This document shows, in pieces, positions 50 to 21,031 of a DNA stretch of 21,031 nucleotides (positions are counted from its first letter, which is position 1; every line of letters begins with the position of its first letter). Below the pieces are notes generated by a model. That model saw only the letters and a program-made list of their open reading frames with translations. It did not search any database and was not told the DNA's origin. Position numbers and translations under genes: made by a program. The stretch spans positions 1 through 21,031 of the forward strand of contig JAYUCR010000397.1 in assembly GCA_043740165.1 (NCBI GenBank), in the 5' to 3' direction. This stretch comes from Acidobacteriota bacterium (GTDB lineage: Bacteria; Acidobacteriota; Polarisedimenticolia; Gp22-AA2).

Positions 50-3000
50 TCATCGAGCTCCGCCGGGCCCCGGTGACTGCTCCCGTCCGCCAGGATCGAC
101 GGCCTTCTCGCCGCTCAGCGTGTTCAGCCGCTGCTTCAGTTCCGGCTGGTCCGGATTCAATCTGAGGGATTCGCGAAAAGCGCGGACAGCCTCGTCGGGC
201 ATCCCGAGCTTGAGGTCGATCTCCCCGAGGAGCTCCTGAAGTCCGGCCTCGCTCGGAAGGCGCTGGATCGCCGTGCGTATCAGATCCAGCGCCTCGCGCT
301 CACGCGATTGATCGAGGAGCCATCTTCCCAGGTTGAGGTACGCGGGGACGTAGAGCGGATTGATCTGTAATGCGCGGCGCATTTCGCTCTCCCCTTCTTT
401 CGCGTTCCCGCGTTTCAACAGGGCCAGCCCCAGGTTGTGGTGCACGTCGGCATACCCCGGATCCAGGGCAGCCGCCTTGCGGTAGGCGGCGATTTCGTCC
501 TCGGGGCGGCCGAGCCGTCCGAAAACCGCCCCGAGATTGTTGAACGCGGAGGCGTAGGAGGGATCGATGACCGTAGCGCGCTCGAGCTCCTGGCGCGCCT
601 CCTCCAGCCGGCCACCCAGATAGAGCAGCCCTCCGAAATTGGTGCGGACGGCGGCATTGTCCGGGTCGCGGCGAAGGGCATTGCGGAACTGCGTCTCGGC
701 GGCCTTCATGTCGCCGCGATCCTCGTAAACCAGGGCGAGGTTGCTGTAGGAGCCCGCGAAACTGGCGTCGGCGGCGATGGCCCGATGAAACGCCTCGATC
801 GCCGGTTCGATTTGTTTCCGGTTCTTCAGGATGACGCCGATGTTGTTGTAGGCCTCGGCGTAGTCCGGGTCGATCGCGACCACCTTCCGAAATTGCTCCA
901 GCGCCTCGTCGGTCCGCCCCAGCCGGTCAAAGAGGATGCCGAGGCTGTTGCGGGCGTCGGCGAAATTGGGCTCGTATTCCAGCGCGCGCCGGAAGTGCGT
1001 CTCCGCCCCGGCCGTGTCTCCCTGATCGAGCGCCATGTTGCCGAGCAGATTCTCAGCCTCCTTGGAACGGGGCTGCCGCTTCATGTGCTCATCGAGGGCC
1101 CGTGTCGCGGCGGCGTAGTCCTTCTTCTTGTAGTACGCGCGCGCCATGTTCAGGCGGGCGATCGTCAGGTCCTCGGAAGCCGCGACGGCCTTTTCGAACT
1201 CCCCCAGGGCGTCATCGTAGCGGCCCTGGCCGAGCAGGATGGTGCCGCGGTTATTGTGCGTGTTCGCCGTCTCCCCCGCCAGGTACCCGAGAGATCGGAG
1301 TTTTTCGATCCGCTCCGCGTCACCGGCAGCGTCGGGGCTCGCGCCCGACGGCGCCGGGGGGACGCCGCCCGCCGAGGAGCTGGAGCCGGGAGGCATTTCG
1401 GGTGGCGCCGCCTCCGGCCCCGCGGCGACCCTGGCCGGCGCCCCGGTCGCCGCCGGGTTGGCGGGGTTCTCCCATGATGGAATGTAGGCTTCGGGATGCT
1501 CCTTCAGGAATTCCGGGGCGAACGCCTCGGTGATCGGCCGCCCGTCCATGTCCTCGCCCACGGGCAAGCCGTACAGGCGCAACAGGGTGGGGGTGATGTC
1601 GAGCACGGAGGCCTCATCCAGCTCGACCCCGCGCCGGAATTCCGGGCCGTGCAGCACGAGAATCCCGTACTTACGATGCCAGTCCGCCGCGGCCCCGTAC
1701 CCGATGCGCGACTCGGTGAGCGGACGATTTTCGCCGGTCCTGAATCCATGGTCGGAGAGCACCATCACCGTGGTCGGATGGATCCCTTCCAGAAGTCGAC
1801 CCAATGCGGCGTCGGCCTGGACGTAGTATTCATCCACGACCCTCCCGAAGCGCTGCCGGGATTCGGCGTCGATGCCCTGCAGCGGCGGCGGCGCATAGGG
1901 CATGAACAGGTGCGCCGCCGTGTCGGTGCCCTCGAAATAGACCGCGGTGAAGTCGGTGTCATAGCGCGCCTCGAGCGCCAGTGCCACCCTCTCGTAGGTC
2001 CTGCCCGAGGCCAGAAGCGTCTTGAAGTTCTCGACCAGCCGGCTCTGATTTTCCGGCAGCGAGCTCGGATCCGGAGGCATCCGCATGAAGGGCGTCAGAT
2101 CCTGCATCAGGATGTTTTCCGGCGTCACGGTCAGCGATGTCACCAGCGCGTCCGCCTCGGGGGGCGAAACCTTGCCTTCGCGCGCCCCGCCGTCGACGGC
2201 GCGCGCGCCGAACAGCTGGTACGCGACCCGGTCGGAGACCACGAACCCGTTCACCTGCTCGGCGGGATAAGTCGCCCACCACCCGACGATTCCGACCCTC
2301 ACCCCGCGCTCTCCGAGCATGTTCCAGATCGCCTTGACGCGGCGCTGCGTCGCGCTGACCGGGACGCGCTCCCCTTCCCGCTCGGTGTTGGCCACGAAGT
2401 CCAGAATGCCGTGGCGCGCCGGCACCACTCCCGTCGCGATGCTGGTCCAGATGACCGGCGAAAGCATCGGATTGATGCTGCGCAGCCGGGCCCGAACCCC
2501 CTCGTGGACGAGCCGGGCAAGATGCGGCATCCGGCCGCTGCTCATCAACGGGTCGATGATGTTCCAGTCGGCGCCGTCCAGGCCGACGAGGAGCACCTTT
2601 CCCAGGGCGCCCCCGCGCGTCGCCGTCAGGGGGGTCCCGTTGTCGGCCCGGATGCGGACCCCCGGAACCTCGCACGACAGGAGGACCAGCCCCGCCTCCC
2701 GGAAGCGATCCCCCAGGGTGCGGCTGAGCGCCGCCTGGAGCTCCTCGGTGTGCGTCCCGGAGATATCCGCATAGCTGGCCGCCGCCAGGGCGCCACGGAT
2801 CGCCTCCAGGACCCATCGGCTGATGGCGTCGCCTTCCAGGCGCGGTCCGAGGGTCCGGTGCACCTCGATCAGCCGCTCCGGATCGACGCGGTAGCGCAGG
2901 GTCACCGAGGTTTCAACTTCGGTCCCTTCGCGCGTGGCGAGCGGCCGGCGGGAGCCGCCCAGGGAAATATCGAGGGTCGCTGAACGGACGGCGTAGAGGC

Positions 3001-3199
3001 TGATCCGGAACAGCCCCGGCGGGGCGAGGTGCCATCCCTCGGGCACGATGCGCGGCGAGATGAGGCCGAGCCGTGAATCCAGAACGGCAGCCCGGCCGTC
3101 GTCTTCGGTGCGGCGCAGGCCGGCTCCGAGCCAGACGCATAAAAACAGCAGGAGGACGCCGGCGGCCATACGGCGTCGTCTCAGCACCTCCGGTGTCAT
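50..3199 (-). CDS. Membrane-anchored multidomain protein. It has an N-terminal signal/TM segment, a type I phosphodiesterase/alkaline-phosphatase-superfamily domain and a C-terminal array of TPR repeats.
   Basis: 1049-aa ORF. The N-terminus MTPEVLRRRRMAAGVLLLFLCVWLGAG looks like a signal/anchor. The stretch VLLVGLDGADWNIIDPL...VLSDHGF resembles Phosphodiest/AlkP-family metal-site motifs. The C-terminal half consists of repeated 34-aa TPR-like units (AxxYxxLGxxxxxxGxxxEAxxxxxxAL pattern, many copies). Stop TGA at 52-50. Confidence 0.75.
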   Translation of the reverse strand: MTPEVLRRRRMAAGVLLLFLCVWLGAGLRRTEDDGRAAVLDSRLGLISPRIVPEGWHLAPPGLFRISLYAVRSATLDISLGGSRRPLATREGTEVETSVTLRYRVDPERLIEVHRTLGPRLEGDAISRWVLEAIRGALAAASYADISGTHTEELQAALSRTLGDRFREAGLVLLSCEVPGVRIRADNGTPLTATRGGALGKVLLVGLDGADWNIIDPLMSSGRMPHLARLVHEGVRARLRSINPMLSPVIWTSIATGVVPARHGILDFVANTEREGERVPVSATQRRVKAIWNMLGERGVRVGIVGWWATYPAEQVNGFVVSDRVAYQLFGARAVDGGAREGKVSPPEADALVTSLTVTPENILMQDLTPFMRMPPDPSSLPENQSRLVENFKTLLASGRTYERVALALEARYDTDFTAVYFEGTDTAAHLFMPYAPPPLQGIDAESRQRFGRVVDEYYVQADAALGRLLEGIHPTTVMVLSDHGFRTGENRPLTESRIGYGAAADWHRKYGILVLHGPEFRRGVELDEASVLDITPTLLRLYGLPVGEDMDGRPITEAFAPEFLKEHPEAYIPSWENPANPAATGAPARVAAGPEAAPPEMPPGSSSSAGGVPPAPSGASPDAAGDAERIEKLRSLGYLAGETANTHNNRGTILLGQGRYDDALGEFEKAVAASEDLTIARLNMARAYYKKKDYAAATRALDEHMKRQPRSKEAENLLGNMALDQGDTAGAETHFRRALEYEPNFADARNSLGILFDRLGRTDEALEQFRKVVAIDPDYAEAYNNIGVILKNRKQIEPAIEAFHRAIAADASFAGSYSNLALVYEDRGDMKAAETQFRNALRRDPDNAAVRTNFGGLLYLGGRLEEARQELERATVIDPSYASAFNNLGAVFGRLGRPEDEIAAYRKAAALDPGYADVHHNLGLALLKRGNAKEGESEMRRALQINPLYVPAYLNLGRWLLDQSREREALDLIRTAIQRLPSEAGLQELLGEIDLKLGMPDEAVRAFRESLRLNPDQPELKQRLNTLSGEKAVDPGGREQSPGPGGAR

Positions 3200-3224
3200 G
3201 GGCCGGGTGGCGAGCGGAACCCGA

Positions 3225-5671
<2,447 letters not shown>

Positions 5672-15220: not shown

Positions 15221-15249
15221 TTGCGAGTCTGTCATCGGAACCTATATTC
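15221..15249 (+). promoter_or_regulatory. Sigma70-like promoter for the plus-strand operon: TTGCGA (-35), 17-bp spacer, TATATT (-10)
   Basis: Hexamers at 15221-15226 and 15244-15249 with an exact 17-bp spacer. The predicted TSS is near 15256, about 30 nt upstream of the first CDS, with a GGGGAGAGGGG SD in between. Confidence 0.4.
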
Positions 15250-15285: not shown

Positions 15286-16428
15286 GTGATGCAGGAAGCG
15301 ACGAGGCCGGTAGACATAGAGGAAGACCCCGGACCGTCACAGGGGCTCGACCTCATTGGCCTGCTCGCGGCGCCGGGGCCGATGGGGGCCGCGCTCCGGT
15401 CGGCGATGCGCGATCTCCCCCCCTCCGCGGTCCCGGGACTCGTGGAGCGGCTGGTCTACCACCGCATCGACGGCCTGGCCTGGCGCGCCATCGCCGGCCT
15501 TCCGGCGGACGAGATCGACCCCTGGCTCCGCGCCACGCTGCGCCGCCGGCACCAGCAGCGCAGCGCCGCGGTCCTGGCGCAGGGACTGGGGCTCGCCGAG
15601 GTGCTCGATCACCTGACGCGGGCCGGCGTGCCGGTCGCGGTGACGCGCGGGCTGCGGGTCATCGAGTGGATCTACCGTGACACGGGGGCGAGGCCGTTCG
15701 AGGATCACGATCTCCTGGTCCGGCCCGCCGACGAGCCGCTGGCGTGCGCCGTCCTGCAGCGCCTGGGGTACGAGGAACGCGCCCCCCGCCTTTTCCGCCG
15801 CACCACCATCACGCTGGACCTGCACACCGACCCGCTCGGAGCGCGCCGCCGCCCGACGCGCGCGCAGCTCTTCCCGATCGACGTCGAGGCGCTGTTCCGT
15901 GACGCCAGCCCCGGCTGGATCGCCGGCGGCCCGGCGATGATCCTGGCCCCCGAGGACGAGATCCTGCTGCTCGCGCTGCACGTCGTGAAACATTCCTTCG
16001 ATCGCCTGATCCGCACCGCCGACCTGGCGCACCTGGTCGCCGTGCACGGCAACGCCATCTGCTGGGAAAGGGTTCGGGAGCGCGCCGAGGAGGCGCGCGC
16101 CACGCGGCTCCTCGGCCTGGCGTTTGGCGCCGCGACGCCGTTCGGCATCACGGTGCCGGCGGCGGTGCGCCTGCCGGAGCCTTTCGCCGGCCTCGAAGGG
16201 CTGCTGCTCGATCGCGTCCGCGCCTTCCGTCCCCTCCCCTACTGCGGAGAGGTGCTGATGGCGATGGCCGCTCCGCGCTTCCTCGATCGCCTGCGCTACG
16301 TCCTCGATGCGCTCGTCCCGGCGGGCGAGGCGCCGGCGGGCGGCTGGTCGGCGGCGGAGATCCCCCGCCGCAGCGTGATTCTGCTCGACGGCGCCGCGCG
16401 CCGGATGCGTGAAAGGAGACGGGCGTGA
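15286..16428 (+). CDS. Uncharacterised nucleotidyltransferase-family protein (PF14907/NTP_transf_5-like; Pol-beta superfamily)
   Basis: 380-aa ORF. The block AGVPVAVTRGLRVIEWIYRDTGARPFEDHDLLVRPADEPLACAVLQRLGY matches the KG..-Y.dpg.R..sDiDlLV...d...a...L...Gy signature of this family as I remember it. The start is GTG 15286 or ATG 15289 after a G-rich SD. The stop TGA overlaps the next start as GTGA. Confidence 0.6.
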   Translation: MMQEATRPVDIEEDPGPSQGLDLIGLLAAPGPMGAALRSAMRDLPPSAVPGLVERLVYHRIDGLAWRAIAGLPADEIDPWLRATLRRRHQQRSAAVLAQGLGLAEVLDHLTRAGVPVAVTRGLRVIEWIYRDTGARPFEDHDLLVRPADEPLACAVLQRLGYEERAPRLFRRTTITLDLHTDPLGARRRPTRAQLFPIDVEALFRDASPGWIAGGPAMILAPEDEILLLALHVVKHSFDRLIRTADLAHLVAVHGNAICWERVRERAEEARATRLLGLAFGAATPFGITVPAAVRLPEPFAGLEGLLLDRVRAFRPLPYCGEVLMAMAAPRFLDRLRYVLDALVPAGEAPAGGWSAAEIPRRSVILLDGAARRMRERRRA

Positions 16429-16730
16429 TCGAACCTGGAACCGCACGTTACATCCCCTCCCCCGACGTGGTGACGCGCAACATCGCCGGCGAGCACCTGC
16501 TGGTGCCGGTGCGCACCGGTGTCGCGCAGATGGACTACCTGTACACCGCCGACGAGGTGGGGAGCGTCATCTTCTCCCTGCTCGACGGGCAGCGCGACGC
16601 GACCGCCATCGGCCGCCATGTCGCGGAGCTGTTCGAGGTCGACGCGGCGCAGGCCACGGCCGACGTGGCGGCCTTCCTCCAGGAGCTGGAACAGGCCGGA
16701 CTGGTCCGCCTGGCCGGGGAGGACCGTTGA
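16425..16730 (+). CDS. PqqD-family protein, a standalone RiPP precursor recognition element (RRE)
   Basis: 101 aa. The pattern VTRNIAGEHLLVPVRTG..YLYTADEVGSVIFSLLDGQRDATAIGRHVAELFEVDAAQATADVAAFLQELEQAGLV is the canonical PqqD/RRE pattern. The GTG start has AAGGAG 6 nt upstream and overlaps the upstream stop as GTGA. Confidence 0.85.
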   Translation: MIEPGTARYIPSPDVVTRNIAGEHLLVPVRTGVAQMDYLYTADEVGSVIFSLLDGQRDATAIGRHVAELFEVDAAQATADVAAFLQELEQAGLVRLAGEDR

Positions 16731-18031
16731 GCGCCTGCTCCCCGGTCACGTACCAGGAGTTCGGCAAGAGCGTGATGCAGGCATGCGCCGGGGCACGCGT
16801 GCCGCTGTCCGGCTCGTTCGAGCTGACCTTCAAGTGCAACCTGCGCTGCGTGCACTGCTACATCCCGGACTTCTCCGGGCGCGACGAGATGACCACCTCC
16901 GAGGTGCAGCGGATCCTGAGCGAGGCGGCCGATGAGGGATGCCTCTGGATGCTGCTCACCGGCGGCGAGGTCCTGTCGCGCGCCGACTTCCGCGAGATCT
17001 ACCTGCACGCCAAGCGCCTGGGGCTGCTGCTGACCGTGTTCAGCAACGGCACCCTCCTGGACGAACGGATCGCCGATCTGCTGGCCGAGTACCCGCCGCG
17101 GGGTATCGAGATCACCCTCTATGGGATGTCGGACGCGACGTATCTGCGCACCACCGGCTCACCGGGGCGTTTCACGCGGGTCAAGCGGGCGGTCGAGCTG
17201 CTGGCGGAGCGCCGCATCGACCTCACCCTGAAGGCGATCGCGATGGAGGAGCTGCGCGACGAGATCCCGGTCATGCAGGCCTGGGCGGCGTCGATGGGGA
17301 TCCGCTTCCGGTACGACGGCACCATTCACGGCCGGCTCGACGGCTCGCTCAGCCCCACGGCGGCGCGTTCCACCCCGGAGCGGCTGGTGCAGCACGACAT
17401 CAACGACCCGCGGCGGCGCGCCGACTGGATGACCTTCTACCGCGACTACGTCAAGCCGGCGCGCAAGAGCGAGATGCTGATGTCGTGCGGCGCCGGGGTG
17501 CAGAGCTTCCACGTCGACCCCAAGGGGACCCTGCTGTCGTGCGAGGCGCTCAACCTCGACGCCTACGATCTGCGCCGCGGCACGTTCCGGGAAGGCTGGT
17601 ACGGCATCGTCGGCCGCGTGCGCGAGCGCCGCGCGGCGGCCCACAACGTCTGCGCCGGCTGCGAGATCAAAGCCCTCTGCGATCGCTGCCCGGCCACGGC
17701 GCTGCTCGAGACCGGCAGCCCCGACGGCTGGATCCCCTACTACTGCGAAGTGACCCACAGGCGGGCCTCCTTCCTGGAGGCCGAGCTGGGAAACACGGAA
17801 GCCGCGGCGCGCTACATGGCCCACGCCGAGAAGGTGGCCGGCGGGTGGACTCCCGAAGGGGTCATCCTGCCGCGCGCCTCGGCGCTGCGCGCGAGCGCCG
17901 CCCCGGCGGGCGGCTGCGCGTCCGGCGGATGCACCTCGGGCGGGTGCGGCAAGCCTGCCGCGGCCGCCGCCAGTCCCCAGCCGTTGCAGATCGATTTGAA
18001 CCGCAGCAACACGATGGAGAGACAGCGATGA
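16727..18031 (+). CDS. Radical SAM / SPASM-domain peptide maturase (PqqE/sactipeptide/ranthipeptide-synthase-like)
   Basis: The CNLRCVHC (CxxxCxxC) AdoMet cluster is near the N-terminus and a GGE-like motif (LLTGGEVL) follows. A full SPASM signature is present: CGAGVQSFHVDPKGTLLSC is CX12GX4C, then CAGCEIKALCDRC, then a final YYCEV Cys. The start is uncertain. TTG 16727 overlaps the PqqD stop as TTGA with GGAGG 4 nt upstream. GTG 16772 and ATG 16775 are alternatives. The first ~100 codons of the ORF-track entry (16409-) are out-of-frame overlap with the PqqD gene and are not real. Confidence 0.88.
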   Translation: MSACSPVTYQEFGKSVMQACAGARVPLSGSFELTFKCNLRCVHCYIPDFSGRDEMTTSEVQRILSEAADEGCLWMLLTGGEVLSRADFREIYLHAKRLGLLLTVFSNGTLLDERIADLLAEYPPRGIEITLYGMSDATYLRTTGSPGRFTRVKRAVELLAERRIDLTLKAIAMEELRDEIPVMQAWAASMGIRFRYDGTIHGRLDGSLSPTAARSTPERLVQHDINDPRRRADWMTFYRDYVKPARKSEMLMSCGAGVQSFHVDPKGTLLSCEALNLDAYDLRRGTFREGWYGIVGRVRERRAAAHNVCAGCEIKALCDRCPATALLETGSPDGWIPYYCEVTHRRASFLEAELGNTEAAARYMAHAEKVAGGWTPEGVILPRASALRASAAPAGGCASGGCTSGGCGKPAAAAASPQPLQIDLNRSNTMERQR

Positions 18032-18219
18032 CACGCAGCCCCGAGAAGCCCGGCGCGCCGGCGCGCCGGTCGTACCACCCGCCGCAGCTGCAGCGGGTCA
18101 GCCTGGTCCCCGACGAAGCCGTTCTCGCCTCCTGCAAGACCGCGACCGTGCAGGGGCCGCTGGGCGCCTCGGCAAAATGCACCGGCACCCCTTCACTCTG
18201 CTCGCACGATGGCTCCTAA
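18028..18219 (+). CDS. Candidate RiPP precursor peptide, 63 aa: MTRSPEKPGAPARRSYHPPQLQRVSLVPDEAVLASCKTATVQGPLGASAKCTGTPSLCSHDGS
   Basis: It is not listed separately in the ORF track because it is the 3-prime end of the long frame-1 ORF 16939-18219. ATG 18028 overlaps the rSAM stop as ATGA and has a GGAGAG SD 6 nt upstream. The stop TAA at 18217 is overlapped by the kinase start. GC3 is high. The product has three Cys in its C-terminal third and a C-terminal Ser. Confidence 0.6.
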   Translation: MTRSPEKPGAPARRSYHPPQLQRVSLVPDEAVLASCKTATVQGPLGASAKCTGTPSLCSHDGS

Positions 18220-19132
18220 CACACCCCGTCCGTTGATCCTGGAGATCGCCGGCATCGGCCTCTCCGTGCGGCCGGCCGAGCCGGGGATCGATCTGGTCAC
18301 CGACGCCGCCCACGAGCCGTTTCTGGCGGAAGGGATCGGCGACGACTGCGCCTCGATCGTCCTGGCGCCGGTGGCCTCCACCCGGCCGCCGCGCACCAAG
18401 GGCCGGACGATCTTCGACACCGGCTGCGTCTGGCGTCTGGAGGAGAGCGGCGACGGGCACCTCCTGACGCTGCGCTCGCCGGTGTTCGGCGCCGACCCGT
18501 ATCTCGCGGTGGAATTCGACGCCCAGTATTCCCGCGGCCAGGGGGAAACGCTCGACGGCGGCCCTCATCTGCTGGGAGCGACCATGCACCCTTTCGTCTA
18601 TCCGTTCGACGAGGTGGTCTTCCTGGCCCGCCTGGCGCGCGGCCGCGGCGTGCTGGTGCATGCCTGCGGTCTCACCTATCGCGGGCGCGGCATCCTGCTG
18701 CTCGGCACCTCGGGCGCCGGCAAGAGCACCTCGGCGCGCCTCTGGTCCGAGCGCCCCGCCGCCCGCGTCCTCTCGGACGATCGCATCGTCATCCGCCGCG
18801 ACGACGAGGGTTATCGCATCTTCGGGACCCCCTGGCACGGGGACGCCGGGCTCGAGTCGCCCGGCTCGGCGCCGCTGTGCGCCGTCTTCATCCTCGAGCA
18901 GGCGCCGCGCAATCGCGTCGTCGAGATGCCTCCCTCGCAGGCGGTGGCCCAGATGATGGTGCGCGCCTTTCCCGCCATGTGGGATCAGGGAGGCCTGGAG
19001 TTCGCGGTGAAGTTTCTGTCGCAGATGACCGAGCGGGTCCCGGTGCGGCGGCTGCAGTTCCTGCCCGAAGCCTCGGCGGTCGATTGCGTGCTCGGGGCGA
19101 TCGATGGGGGGCTCGATGCCGAAGGGGCCTGA
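18209..19132 (+). CDS. HprK-like serine kinase (HPr kinase/phosphorylase C-terminal-domain fold; RiPP peptide kinase-like)
   Basis: 307 aa. The block VLVHACGLTYRGRGILLLGTSGAGKSTSARLWSERPAARVLSDDRIVI matches the HprK C-domain P-loop region (VHG..V...G.GVLI.G.SG.GKS..AL.L...G..LVSDD.V.I). The ATG overlaps the precursor gene end by 11 nt. Confidence 0.8.
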   Translation: MAPNTPRPLILEIAGIGLSVRPAEPGIDLVTDAAHEPFLAEGIGDDCASIVLAPVASTRPPRTKGRTIFDTGCVWRLEESGDGHLLTLRSPVFGADPYLAVEFDAQYSRGQGETLDGGPHLLGATMHPFVYPFDEVVFLARLARGRGVLVHACGLTYRGRGILLLGTSGAGKSTSARLWSERPAARVLSDDRIVIRRDDEGYRIFGTPWHGDAGLESPGSAPLCAVFILEQAPRNRVVEMPPSQAVAQMMVRAFPAMWDQGGLEFAVKFLSQMTERVPVRRLQFLPEASAVDCVLGAIDGGLDAEGA

Positions 19133-19136
19133 AGAA

Positions 19137-21031
19137 GTGAACGGGGGCTCTCCCGGGTCGAGCCCGGCCCCGCCGGTCCTCCTGGCGGAGCGCCAGGGAG
19201 TGGTGTTCGTCGCCACGTCACAAAGCGTCGACGGCCTGCGCGTCCCGCGGCGTTACTGGGGGACCGACATGGGTGTCGTGGCGATCCCGGCGCACGAGGA
19301 GGAGGTGCGGGCCTGCGAGCTGCTCCCCCCTTCGGATGCCGGCGCCTGGCCGCGCGCCCTGCCGCGCCCCGACCTGCTCTCTCCGGTTCTGTCGCGTCTC
19401 CTCAGCGTCGAGCACATGGAGATGAGTCTCTATCCGGGGCGCGACGGCCTGAAAGCGATGCTGATCGCCCCGGACGGGCAGCGCCTGCCGTTCCCGATCG
19501 CCCCCAAGGATGCGCTCGGCCTCCTGGCCGCGGTCTTCCACCATGCGCCGCGCGGTGTCGTCGCCCTGAACGCGAGCCGCCCCGGGCGGCTGCTCCTCGC
19601 CGTCCAGCCGGCCGCCCGGCCGCACGAGTACCGCGTGCGGCTCGCCGGCGCCGTGGCCACACCGAAGCCGGGCAGCCTGCCCGAGATTGGCGCCTCGATG
19701 TCGCTCCTCGAAATCCTGAACGAATCGCTCGATCGTCCCTCGGGATTGATGCTGGTCGCCGGGGGCAGCTCCTCGGGGCGCAGCACGACCCTGGACCTTC
19801 TGGCCGGATCGCTCCTGGCGCGCGGCCGGAGCGGCGGCCGGATCGGCCCGCGGCGCGAGACCGCGAACCCGAACCTCCCCTGGCTCGCCGACGCCGTCAC
19901 CGACTGGCCGTTTCCGGAGAGCCTCAAGGAGGCGGCGCCCGACTTCGTCATGATGGAGCGGCTGGAAGGACTGCGGCACCTGCTGCTCGCCGCCCGCCTC
20001 GCCGGGACGGGGACGCTGGTGCTGGCCGGCGCGCCCCCCGCCGAGCCGCAGGCGCTGGTGCGCCGCGTGGCGCGCGAGCTCGAGGCCGGCGCCGGACCCG
20101 AGGTGCCGGTGATGGTGCTGGCGCAGTCCCTGCTGCGCACCGTCTGCCGCGGATGCACCACGTGGACGGCGATCCCGGCGGCGCGCGCGTTGCGCCTCGG
20201 GTTCCACCGCTGGGATCTGGAGGAGATGGAGCGCCGCGGCGGGCTCGCCGTCCCGGCCCGCAAAGGCTGCCCCACCTGTGCCGGGACCGGCATCGCCGGG
20301 CTCACGGGGGTGTTCAGCTATGCCGGGTCGGACGGCCTCTCGAGCGCGCTGCCGACGCTGCGCGAAGAAGGCTGGCGCAAGGTTGTCGAAGGCATCGCCG
20401 ACGTCGATGACGTCGCGGCCCTGCCGGGTGGGCATCACGCCATGCGTTCCCTGCGCGAGATCGCCGTGCTGGCCGGCACGACGCCGATGGCGCGCCATGA
20501 GCCCGACGGCGTCGCCACCGCGGCGTCGGCCCGTCCGGTCGCCGCGCGACCCGCCGCGGCCCCGCCGGTCAAGTCCGGCGCCGTCGCGCGCGGCTCCTCC
20601 TCCGCCGACGTCGACATCCTCGTGGCGCTGTTGCGCGCCGCGCGCGCCGGGCAGCCGCCGCAGCCGGAGCGCATGGCCGAGCTGGCGCGCGGCGTCGCCG
20701 GCCGGGCGATGCAGGGCGAGCTCGACACCCAGCTCCAGCCGCCGCCCGCCGGCTACCACATGGGGCGCCGGGCGGTGAACACGGCGGTCCTGGCGGTGCG
20801 GATCGTGGCGGCGCTGGGTCAGACCGAGGACGCTCCGGCGACGGCCACGCTGGCGCTGCTCCATGACATCGGGCTGCTCGAGGCGGGTGTCGATCCGGGG
20901 GCCGAATCGGGCCCTCAACTGAGCGAAGCCGCTCTCGATCCCCAGGGGGCACGGATGCGCCCCGCCACCATGCTGCGCGCGCTTGGCCTTCCCGACGCCG
21001 AGCTGGCGGCCCGGATCGCCGACGCGCAGAC
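19137..21031 (+). CDS. Partial (3-prime end runs off the window) GspE/PilB-type secretion-ATPase-fold protein with degenerate catalytic motifs, fused to a C-terminal HD domain
   Basis: I translated this manually (frame 0, no stop to the window end, over 630 codons), and it is absent from the ORF track. It aligns by eye to GspE/EpsE. LMLVAGGSSSGRSTTL matches LVTGPTGSGKSTTL, with the Walker A Lys replaced by Arg. APDFVMMERLEGL matches DPDVVMVGEIRDL. The His box is lost (TGTLVLAGAPPA for TGHLVMSTLHTN). The tetracysteine Zn motif is kept (VCRGC ... GCPTCAGTGIAGLTGVF). A C-terminal HD signature follows (YHMGRRAVNTAVLAVRIVAALG ... LALLHDIGLL). The start is GTG 19137 (AAGGGG 9 nt upstream) or an in-frame ATG at 19104/19116. 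Confidence 0.7.
   Translation, partial: MNGGSPGSSPAPPVLLAERQGVVFVATSQSVDGLRVPRRYWGTDMGVVAIPAHEEEVRACELLPPSDAGAWPRALPRPDLLSPVLSRLLSVEHMEMSLYPGRDGLKAMLIAPDGQRLPFPIAPKDALGLLAAVFHHAPRGVVALNASRPGRLLLAVQPAARPHEYRVRLAGAVATPKPGSLPEIGASMSLLEILNESLDRPSGLMLVAGGSSSGRSTTLDLLAGSLLARGRSGGRIGPRRETANPNLPWLADAVTDWPFPESLKEAAPDFVMMERLEGLRHLLLAARLAGTGTLVLAGAPPAEPQALVRRVARELEAGAGPEVPVMVLAQSLLRTVCRGCTTWTAIPAARALRLGFHRWDLEEMERRGGLAVPARKGCPTCAGTGIAGLTGVFSYAGSDGLSSALPTLREEGWRKVVEGIADVDDVAALPGGHHAMRSLREIAVLAGTTPMARHEPDGVATAASARPVAARPAAAPPVKSGAVARGSSSADVDILVALLRAARAGQPPQPERMAELARGVAGRAMQGELDTQLQPPPAGYHMGRRAVNTAVLAVRIVAALGQTEDAPATATLALLHDIGLLEAGVDPGAESGPQLSEAALDPQGARMRPATMLRALGLPDAELAARIADAQ

Follow-up and report, generated by a model that had tools for sequence, protein, structure and literature searches.

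The window, that is, the whole 21,031-nucleotide stretch of DNA that was analysed, contains a run of closely packed forward-strand genes in which an HprK-like kinase gene directly follows that of a short precursor peptide. The features of this region are as follows.

15221–15248, forward strand: promoter-like site TTGCGA-16-TATATT upstream of the operon, a consensus match only
15286–16428, forward strand: nucleotidyltransferase-family protein of PF14907 (NTP_transf_5), 380 aa, 108 bits against a Pfam cutoff of 31.2
16425–16730, forward strand: discrete PqqD-family RiPP recognition element (RRE), 101 aa, 54 bits against the Pfam PqqD cutoff of 23.4
16727–18031, forward strand: radical SAM/SPASM-type maturase, 434 aa, TTG start, Radical_SAM match of 77 bits
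18028–18219, forward strand: precursor peptide of 63 aa, MTRSPEKPGAPARRSYHPPQLQRVSLVPDEAVLASCKTATVQGPLGASAKCTGTPSLCSHDGS; a gene call is present in three assemblies
18073–18090, forward strand: leader motif Tyr16-His-Pro-Pro-Gln-Leu21 (YxxPxL), with Tyr and Pro invariant in the peptide alignment
18209–18219, forward strand: 11 nt shared by the 3' end of the peptide gene and the start of the kinase gene, conserved in all 16 close-clade loci
18209–19132, forward strand: P-loop kinase of the HprK/PEPCK fold, Pfam ScmC family, identified from profile, homologue, structure and alignment evidence
18214–18216, forward strand: codon of the C-terminal Ser63, the proposed phospho-acceptor and the last residue in all peptides recovered
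18659–18661, forward strand: codon of His151 of the His-Lys-Asp-Asp set, nearly invariant in the kinase alignment and paired with the His of HprK/P
18704–18730, forward strand: Walker A motif or P-loop, Gly166-TSGAGKS-Thr174 with Lys172; Gly166, Gly169, Gly171, Lys172 and Thr174 are invariant
18773–18781, forward strand: Ser189-Asp190-Asp191, the equivalent of the catalytic Asp-Asp of HprK/P, paired with 'ADD' of PDB entry 1jb1
19116–21031, forward strand: PilB/GspE-like protein, 781 aa, of which only the start is present as it runs off the window; co-operonic with the kinase

Neighbouring genes overlap by 4 nt at the nucleotidyltransferase/PqqD junction (the stop of the former and the start of the latter share GTGA), by 4 nt where the radical SAM start overlaps the PqqD stop, by 4 nt at the radical SAM/peptide junction, by 11 nt between peptide and kinase and by 17 nt between the kinase and the PilB-like gene. 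No terminator-like site lies between 14900 and 19400, and there are none inside the operon. Together with the start/stop overlaps, this supports an operon organization. Two promoter-like sites were found, with 0.2 expected. The PilB-like gene follows the kinase in the close clade only. A search against Rfam found no RNA families in the window, and PADLOC found no tie to defence systems, the radical SAM protein giving generic viperin matches only.

The sequence-only reading of this DNA had noted the 11 nt overlap and had taken it to imply stoichiometric co-expression of the kinase and its presumed substrate. The overlap itself is as described, and in each of the 16 close-clade loci the ATG or GTG of the kinase lies inside the 3' end of the peptide gene, which in the window ends with the TAA stop at 18217–18219. 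It supports translational coupling rather than a fixed stoichiometry, and in one clade only: the two genes are adjacent without overlap in distant clades, with gaps of 4 and 70 nt in loci L084 and L085.

The kinase ORF (307 aa, ATG start) is a real gene and not a chance product of high GC content, since third-position GC in its frame is 0.84–0.93, homologues are abundant and the AlphaFold model is confident (pLDDT 92.5, pTM 0.90). Homologues number 558 in 90% clusters, the best at 100% identity, matches extend to 20,165 50% clusters (E ≤ 1e-3) and relatives are encoded in no fewer than 584 species genomes. An antisense ORF of 372 aa at 18098–19216 was rejected as an artefact.

The segments GTSGAGKST (residues 166–174) and LSDDRIVI (residues 188–195) had earlier been read as placing the protein in the HPr-kinase C-domain family. 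The protein is indeed HprK-like by motif, sequence and fold, and its catalytic residues are intact. Formal membership of Pfam Hpr_kinase_C (PF07475) does not follow, as the match of 20.6 bits lies below the cutoff of 33.3; the family is instead ScmC (PF27840), for which a precomputed match (E ≤ 1e-5) is available on a 100% identical protein. All matches to HprK-type models of NCBIfam and Pfam are real yet sub-threshold, and they span mainly residues ∼142–208, extending to residue 253 for ScmC. The ScmC equivalog TIGR04249 is the best NCBIfam match (37.7 bits, cutoff 125), and TIGR00679 reaches 18.3 bits against a cutoff of 240. The best PDB sequence match for the catalytic segment is Lactobacillus casei HprK/P, and His151, Lys172, Asp190 and Asp191 pair with its catalytic residues in 1jb1. 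In the alignment of the kinase family Ser189 and Asp190 are invariant, while the conservation of Asp191 is 90% or higher.

With HprK/P this protein thus has in common the catalytic His, Lys and Asp-Asp as well as the fold of the C-domain, the P-loop and the 'SDD' segment, as would be expected of a canonical HPr kinase/phosphorylase acting in carbon catabolite control through HPr-Ser46. This identity is effectively refuted by the missed cutoffs, the domain architecture and the genomic context: the protein is devoid of the HprK N-terminal domain, no HPr or PTS partner accompanies it, and its likely substrate is a RiPP precursor. The HPr-rel-A system was likewise rejected, with 15.7 bits against a cutoff of 200 for HprK_rel_A and 21.9 against 35 for PqqD_rel_X (TIGR04352/TIGR04353).

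A profile of the kinase family was compared with kinases from two uncharacterized RiPP clusters on plasmids, located by tblastn, which serve as proxies for PadeK, ThcoK, PsmK, BsfK and LppK. The score is 71.5 bits for the kinase from a Butyrivibrio cluster resembling those of linear polyphosphorylated peptides (LPPs), 37.3 bits for the 'serine kinase' of a Paracoccus lasso cluster, whose precursor also ends in Ser, and 23 bits for HprK/P. Judged by sequence, the resemblance to any characterized kinase appears weak, but the higher scores against the RiPP-cluster kinases support a RiPP-kinase reading.

The nucleotidyltransferase of the Butyrivibrio cluster belongs to the same PF14907 family (117.8 bits) as that of the window. 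The NCBIfam models nearest to the PqqD protein are those of lasso-peptide PqqD chaperones, all sub-threshold. The radical SAM protein carries the CX3CX2C motif CNLRCVHC as well as a Cys cluster at its C-terminal end (CAGCEIKALCDRC...C), and its matches to MftC, PqqE and ScmE, again all sub-threshold, reach through the SPASM region.

Neither Pfam nor NCBIfam has an entry for the peptide family. We found 72 distinct peptide homologues that adjoin kinase homologues, and the peptide profile matches 5,006 clusters. The leader is of the lasso type, YxxPx[L/V], in every peptide recovered, and three Cys residues are found in almost all of them. YxxPxL is the RRE-binding leader motif of lasso- and LPP-type precursors (PMC13381572, PMC10368454). 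Invariant in the alignment are Tyr16, Pro19, Leu26, Glu30, Ala31, Val32, Leu33, Cys36, Lys37 and Ser63. Ser is the final residue in 76 of the 76 peptides from the loci and in all 120 best database matches, and it is preceded by Gly or Ala in an invariant pattern. Among the hydroxyl residues of the family only the C-terminal Ser is invariant, none of the internal Ser or Thr positions being fixed. Its invariance is not a by-product of the gene overlap because it is equally fixed in loci where the genes do not overlap.

The order PqqD, radical SAM, peptide, kinase recurs in the majority of the 85 loci examined, even at kinase identities as low as 34–42%, and was also found in all three loci sampled from the peptide side. 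The conservation beside RiPP genes on which the earlier proposal relied is therefore borne out. A SpI-like (SipW-like signal peptidase) match is present in 75 of the 85 loci, in the close clade after the PilB-like gene. On the contig of the window it lies just outside the window (locus L001, 13250–14665) and is fused to a Wza-like exporter; elsewhere the domain is standalone (L084 and L085) or, as the gene calls suggest, forms a single protein with a giant PorU-like C25 peptidase. None of L001, L084 and L085 has an MsbA-like ABC exporter, and Wza/Wzc-type or PorU-like proteins are found instead. The operon continues into an exopolysaccharide (EPS) locus. The hosts of the cassette are mainly Acidobacteriota, where the operon is very widespread yet unstudied; within the literature searched, nothing relevant was found on ScmC/SynChlorMet, HPr-rel-A, HprK with radical SAM/SPASM or ranthipeptide kinases.

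From these data we infer that the ORF at 18209–19132 probably encodes an active ATP-dependent Ser kinase that would act in RRE-dependent RiPP tailoring on Ser63 of the adjacent peptide. The conserved His151, Lys172, Asp190 and Asp191 support a Ser kinase, as they match the His-Lys-Asp-Asp motif that is essential in lasso-peptide kinases (PMC9266682). The synteny across loci supports a role in RiPP tailoring, and the status of the C-terminal Ser as the only invariant hydroxyl supports Ser63 as the acceptor. Precedents are in agreement with a peptide kinase: in the precursors acted on by PadeK, ThcoK, SyanK and PsmK it is the C-terminal Ser that is phosphorylated, and a conserved C-terminal Ser is a hallmark of PadeK/ThcoK-type systems (PMC9266682). 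PsmN attaches a hexose to phospho-Ser (PMC6993621), and LppK is found in polysaccharide loci, where its partners are an RRE, a SpI peptidase and an NTP transferase (PMC13381572). With PsmK/PsmN and LppK/LppN both studied (PMC6993621, PMC13381572), the earlier statement that no function has been assigned to the association of kinase, PqqD protein and nucleotidyltransferase is outdated.

The fold also allows for a P-loop protein that does not act on the peptide, such as a kinase of an EPS sugar, lipid or polysaccharide intermediate, a phosphorylase or NTPase, or a protein that assists the radical SAM enzyme or the peptidase in an ATP-dependent manner. Small-molecule kinases, the PEPCKs, are the best whole-protein structural matches (226–230 residues aligned), the ScmC family has no experimentally assigned function and is named by NCBIfam merely as a 'cassette protein', and the operon leads into an EPS locus. 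We nevertheless consider such a role rather unlikely. The kinase gene directly follows the peptide gene even in clades without nearby EPS genes, the His-Lys-Asp-Asp set is that of protein and peptide Ser kinases with this fold, and all experimentally studied HprK-like enzymes beside a PqqD-type RRE are peptide kinases.

The choice of acceptor is a separate matter. That HprK-like RiPP kinases phosphorylate the C-terminal Ser, as the sequence-only reading assumed, is correct for the PadeK/ThcoK type but not for BsfK (PMC10368454) and LppK (PMC13381572), which phosphorylate core Ser3. The closest relative in a characterized cluster type is LPP-like, scoring above the lasso kinase whose precursor ends in Ser, and this argues against Ser63. 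A RiPP kinase could then use an internal acceptor near the leader/core junction, which in the close clade would be Ser35 of 'LASCK'. The acceptor of LppK and BsfK lies 19–20 residues past the Tyr of the RRE-bound YxxP; in the clade of the window Ser35 falls at position 20 when counting from Tyr16, in the register of BsfA Ser3, and 'VLAS' is present in all 16 close-clade peptides. Outside this clade, however, the position is occupied by His, Phe, Asn, Ala, Gly or Thr, while the kinase and its catalytic residues are still conserved, and no internal Ser or Thr is invariant. An internal acceptor is therefore very doubtful. The invariant C-terminal Gly/Ala-Ser could instead be a site for the radical SAM enzyme or a recognition element for the peptidase. 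MftC-type enzymes work on C-terminal residues.

With Ser63 as the preferred acceptor, a plausible order of events can be drawn up by analogy. The discrete PqqD protein would hold the 63 aa precursor by its YxxPxL leader, after which the radical SAM/SPASM enzyme would modify the three-Cys core. The side chain of Ser63 would then receive at least one phosphate from the kinase, and the PF14907 nucleotidyltransferase-like protein may decorate this phosphate, comparable to the action of PsmN with hexoses. Finally, the SipW-like signal peptidase would cut off the leader, probably after AVL[A/G].

Several known systems resemble this arrangement in part. The lasso kinases PadeK, ThcoK, SyanK and PsmK, of the paeninodin/pseudomycoidin type, are likewise standalone HprK-like P-loop proteins with the His-Lys-Asp-Asp set. 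Their clusters share with the window operon a discrete PqqD RRE, a YxxPxL leader, a conserved C-terminal Ser in the precursor and often an 'uncharacterised NTP transferase' and polysaccharide loci. In contrast, the window cluster has neither a lasso cyclase (Asn-synthase-like) nor a B2 protease; its class-defining enzyme is the radical SAM/SPASM protein, its core has three conserved Cys residues, and kinase similarity is low at 37 bits with the Paracoccus lasso-cluster kinase as comparator.

LPP clusters, which are reported to be restricted to Bacillota and to contain an MsbA-like exporter (Popov et al., Nat Commun 2026, PMC13381572), share the RRE, the HprK-like kinase, the SipW-like signal peptidase I, the PF14907-type NTP transferase, the YxxPx[V/L] leader and a location within or next to capsule or EPS loci. 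Of the kinases found in clusters whose type is known, the one nearest to the window family is LPP-like. In LPP products, which are linear, phosphorylation falls on core Ser3, whereas the conserved Ser of the window precursor is C-terminal and a radical SAM/SPASM maturase is inserted between RRE and precursor, so that the operon departs from the linear-product definition. The loci checked also differ in their exporters, and the hosts are mainly Acidobacteriota rather than Bacillota.

In the SynChlorMet cassette, too, the HprK-like protein (ScmC) is accompanied by a PqqD homologue and by radical SAM/SPASM enzymes, of which NCBIfam lists two (ScmE and ScmF) compared with the single gene in the window. 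To our knowledge, the TIGRFAM description gives no precursor for this cassette, whereas a precursor family is evident here. The locus thus gives a precursor family for an ScmC-type cassette and offers a directly testable acceptor residue.

To date, experiments have connected HprK-like peptide kinases only with lasso peptides and, from 2026 onwards, with the linear LPPs of Bacillota. In the window the same toolkit (RRE, kinase, PF14907 transferase and SipW-like peptidase) is joined to a radical SAM/SPASM pathway that is very common in soil Acidobacteriota, the radical SAM enzyme being the addition relative to phosphorylated lasso peptides and the LPP family. The association of phosphorylated RiPPs with polysaccharide loci, so far unexplained, also gains independent cases from this locus.

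A more far-reaching and quite unlikely proposal is that the cassette defines a large undescribed class of acidobacterial RiPPs: a radical-SAM-cross-linked peptide whose C-terminal Ser would be (poly)phosphorylated, with the PF14907 enzyme and its neighbours using this phosphate to couple the peptide to exopolysaccharide or a cell-surface glycan. If so, the product would be a ribosomal peptide–polysaccharide conjugate or primer and not a free antibiotic. The candidate coupling machinery would include the SipW-like peptidase, either as a protein of its own or in fusion with a Wza-like exporter or a PorU-type sortase-like C25 peptidase.

The kinase-like protein is encoded by the last of five genes that are joined in a chain by overlapping start and stop codons. 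A promoter-like site is present at 15221-15248, and no terminator-like site was found downstream of it as far as 19400.

Genes of the chain and the gene that follows it (window coordinates)
15286-16428, PF14907 nucleotidyltransferase-family protein, first gene of the chain
16425-16730, PqqD-family protein, second gene
16727-18031, radical SAM/SPASM-type enzyme, third gene
18028-18219, precursor peptide, fourth gene
18209-19132, + strand, kinase-like protein of 307 aa, fifth and last gene
19116 to beyond the window end, PilB/GspE-like gene, after the kinase

The G+C content across the window is 64-77% and spurious long ORFs are abundant. Two of these, rich in Arg, Pro and Gly, overlap real genes: a 372-aa ORF antisense to the kinase (18098-19216, - strand) and a 426-aa frame with the peptide at its end (16939-18219, + strand). 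Both were rejected as GC-content artefacts. The real peptide gene begins with the ATG at 18028, where it overlaps the stop codon of the radical SAM gene. The kinase frame has a third-position GC of 0.84-0.93, as expected for coding DNA, and its homologues in the database number 558, including an identical one (100%) from a 68-kb metagenomic scaffold. A 25-member kinase profile matches 20,165 clusters (50% identity) at E ≤ 1e-3, of which 2,025 also reach E ≤ 1e-30. The kinase gene is therefore real. The sequence confirms the ORF, its P-loop GTSGAGKST (residues 166-174) and LSDDRIVI block (residues 188-195), and the 11 nt shared with the peptide ORF (63 codons, TAA stop at 18217-18219), as described in the sequence-only reading. 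The overlap supports translational coupling of peptide and kinase but not the stoichiometric co-expression that was read from it, and it is specific to one clade, in which the kinase gene begins within the final codons of the peptide gene in 16/16 loci.

All matches of the kinase to curated NCBIfam and Pfam models are sub-threshold and fall mainly on residues ∼142-208, extending to 253 for the SynChlorMet cassette protein ScmC.

Scores of curated models against the kinase (bits; cutoff in brackets)
ScmC TIGR04249, 37.7 (125)
HprK_rel_B, 34.1 (200)
HprK/P TIGR00679, 18.3 (240)
HprK_rel_A, 15.7 (200)
Pfam Hpr_kinase_C, 20.6 (33.3)

The best solved structure for residues 141-214 is that of L. casei HprK/P (phmmer), with His151, Lys172 and Asp190-Asp191 aligned to its His, P-loop Lys and Asp-Asp. 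Each of the four is invariant or at least 90% conserved among homologues of the kinase, and together they correspond to the His-Lys-Asp-Asp motif whose essential role in lasso-peptide kinases was established by mutagenesis (PMC9266682). The proposed placement in the HPr-kinase C-domain family thus stands for these residues but not for the family itself, as the Hpr_kinase_C cutoff is not reached and Pfam's precomputed annotation assigns the identical database protein to PF27840 (ScmC). Judged from the conserved catalytic residues and the sub-threshold scores, the protein is apparently an active HprK/PEPCK-fold kinase with an N-terminal domain of its own. Model cutoffs, domain architecture and genomic context effectively exclude a canonical HprK/P, and membership of HPr-rel-A was rejected because the proteins fall outside its models.

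At least 584 genomes encode a relative of the kinase in a scan with one genome per species. The 80 genomes kept are nearly all MAGs, most of them labelled Acidobacteriota or its groups (Polarisedimenticolia, Acidoferrales, Thermoanaerobaculia, Terriglobales), with other phylum labels also present. The order PqqD, radical SAM, small ORF, kinase is found in most of 85 loci, down to 34-42% kinase identity, and also in three loci fetched from peptide instead of kinase matches.

The small ORFs form a single family with the layout YxxPx[L/V], L-x-P-[D/E]-E-A-V-L-[A/G]-x-C-K, a G-P, two more Cys and a [G/A]-S end. Exactly three Cys are present in 68/72 peptides and a final Ser in 76/76; no other hydroxyl residue is invariant across the family. 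A peptide profile search returned 5,006 clusters at 90% identity, none of them named or covered by Pfam, and all of the top 120 matches end in Gly-Ser. The peptides matched no NCBIfam or Pfam model, so that a large precursor family with an invariant C-terminal Ser is without an entry in either. The invariance is not a by-product of gene overlap, since the Ser is equally invariant where the genes are separate.

We favour a route, probable when taken as a whole, in which the YxxPxL leader would be bound by the PqqD-family protein, the three-Cys core modified by the radical SAM/SPASM enzyme and Ser63 phosphorylated by the kinase. The phosphate may then be extended by the PF14907 protein, and the leader would be cut off by a SipW-like peptidase; cleavage after AVL[A/G] is plausible and conforms to the -3/-1 rule. 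Discrete leader-binding proteins of the lasso type bind the YxxPxL motif (PMC13381572, PMC10368454), and lasso PqqD models are nearest to the PqqD protein of the window. In lasso clusters, the HprK-like PadeK, ThcoK, SyanK and PsmK attach one or more phosphates to the precursor's C-terminal Ser while the leader is still present (PMC9266682), and PsmN, an 'uncharacterised NTP transferase', places hexoses on that phosphate (PMC6993621); the earlier remark that the association of kinase, PqqD and nucleotidyltransferase has no assigned function is outdated. BsfK (PMC10368454) and LppK (PMC13381572) target core Ser3. Ser35 is found 20 residues past the leader Tyr, in the register that BsfK uses. 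It is confined to the clade of the window, and is unlikely to be the acceptor instead of Ser63. Somewhat less unlikely is that the protein acts on something other than a peptide or is no kinase at all; in favour of this are its best whole-protein structural matches, which are PEPCKs, and the lack of an assigned function for ScmC. The radical SAM enzyme or a peptidase might also make use of the invariant Gly/Ala-Ser end.

Linear polyphosphorylated peptide (LPP) clusters, defined by Popov et al. (2026), lie within capsule loci and are reported to be restricted to Bacillota (PMC13381572); the acidobacterial cassette shares their accessory set of discrete leader-binding protein, HprK-like kinase, NTP transferase and SipW-like peptidase. 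Using tblastn against plasmids, we found two annotated clusters for comparison: one of LPP architecture in Butyrivibrio fibrisolvens, with PF14907 transferase, kinase, YxxPxL precursor, PqqD, a 155-aa S24/S26 peptidase and then PssD/E, and a Paracoccus lasso cluster that has a 'serine kinase' and a Ser-terminated precursor. The profile of the kinase family scores 71.5 bits against the Butyrivibrio kinase, across the whole catalytic domain, 37.3 against that of Paracoccus and 23 against HprK/P. Among the sequences compared, this ranking places the family with RiPP kinases, apparently closest to the LPP type, and the clustering with canonical HprK that would have spoken against the sequence-only reading was not seen. 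The acidobacterial peptidase is a homologue of the Butyrivibrio one (E = 2e-8). Kinases of this kind are already known; their combination with a radical SAM/SPASM maturase was noted before only as the uncharacterised SynChlorMet cassette, and no paper on it was found in the literature searched.

The Butyrivibrio cluster adjoins a lasso cluster on pNP243, a 243-kb plasmid of this rumen Clostridia member (NZ_CP146964.1, ∼184-200 kb), and its Cys-, Pro- and Tyr-rich 57-aa precursor (MKKAYVKPELK...) does not end in Ser. The Paracoccus cluster (sp. MC1862, plasmid NZ_CP067230.1, 7-13 kb) is of phosphorylated-lasso type and lies between O-antigen-ligase, sugar-transferase, GNVR and glycosyltransferase genes, a further lineage with a kinase-type RiPP cluster inside a polysaccharide locus.

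On the parent contig the operon runs on into an exopolysaccharide locus encoding a SipW-like signal-peptidase domain fused to a Wza/EpsE-like exporter, a Wzc-like tyrosine autokinase, a Wzy_C/O-antigen-ligase-like protein and glycosyltransferases. A SipW-like match is present in 75/85 loci. In L084 (10885-11343) and L085 (10932-11399) it is a SipW/archaeal-type signal peptidase I domain of ∼155 aa that stands alone immediately behind the kinase, and in the clade of the window it is fused to the exporter N-terminus (13250-14665 of L001, the fetched locus holding the operon; ∼3.4 kb past the window end). In many loci it comes just after the kinase and before a giant PorU-like C25 peptidase; three of these (L090-L092) have gene calls that suggest its fusion to this 2,000-2,700-aa PorU-like protein (Peptidase_C25, CLIPPER/beta-helix). 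These three forms suggest coupling between removal of the leader and export or surface attachment.

The PilB/GspE-like gene follows the kinase in 19/85 loci, all of the close, Polarisedimenticolia-like clade. Its 781-aa product (window 19116-21031; full gene L001 10908-13253) may lack ATP hydrolysis because its Walker A motif, GGSSSGRST, has Arg in place of the expected Lys; the C-terminal part carries an HD-like motif, HDIGLLE.

The acidobacterial contig of L084 also contains, 4.6 kb upstream of its cassette, a separate lasso-like cluster (178-5398) with PF14907, 2OG-Fe oxygenase, Asn-synthase, a 54-aa YxxPxL peptide whose last residue is Thr, an HprK-like protein and PqqD. This HprK-like protein has TEN in place of the SDD of the window's kinase family and may be inactive or catalyse other chemistry. 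L001 and L002, from two assemblies, are nearly identical over >14 kb, a stretch that starts in the intergenic DNA ahead of the nucleotidyltransferase gene and takes in the operon and exopolysaccharide genes up to the end of the fetched loci. The sequences to its left are unrelated, with leuS in one assembly and EamA and methyltransferase genes in the other, and the break at window ∼14968 (locus ∼6760) may reflect a strain rearrangement, a mobile block or a chimeric assembly.
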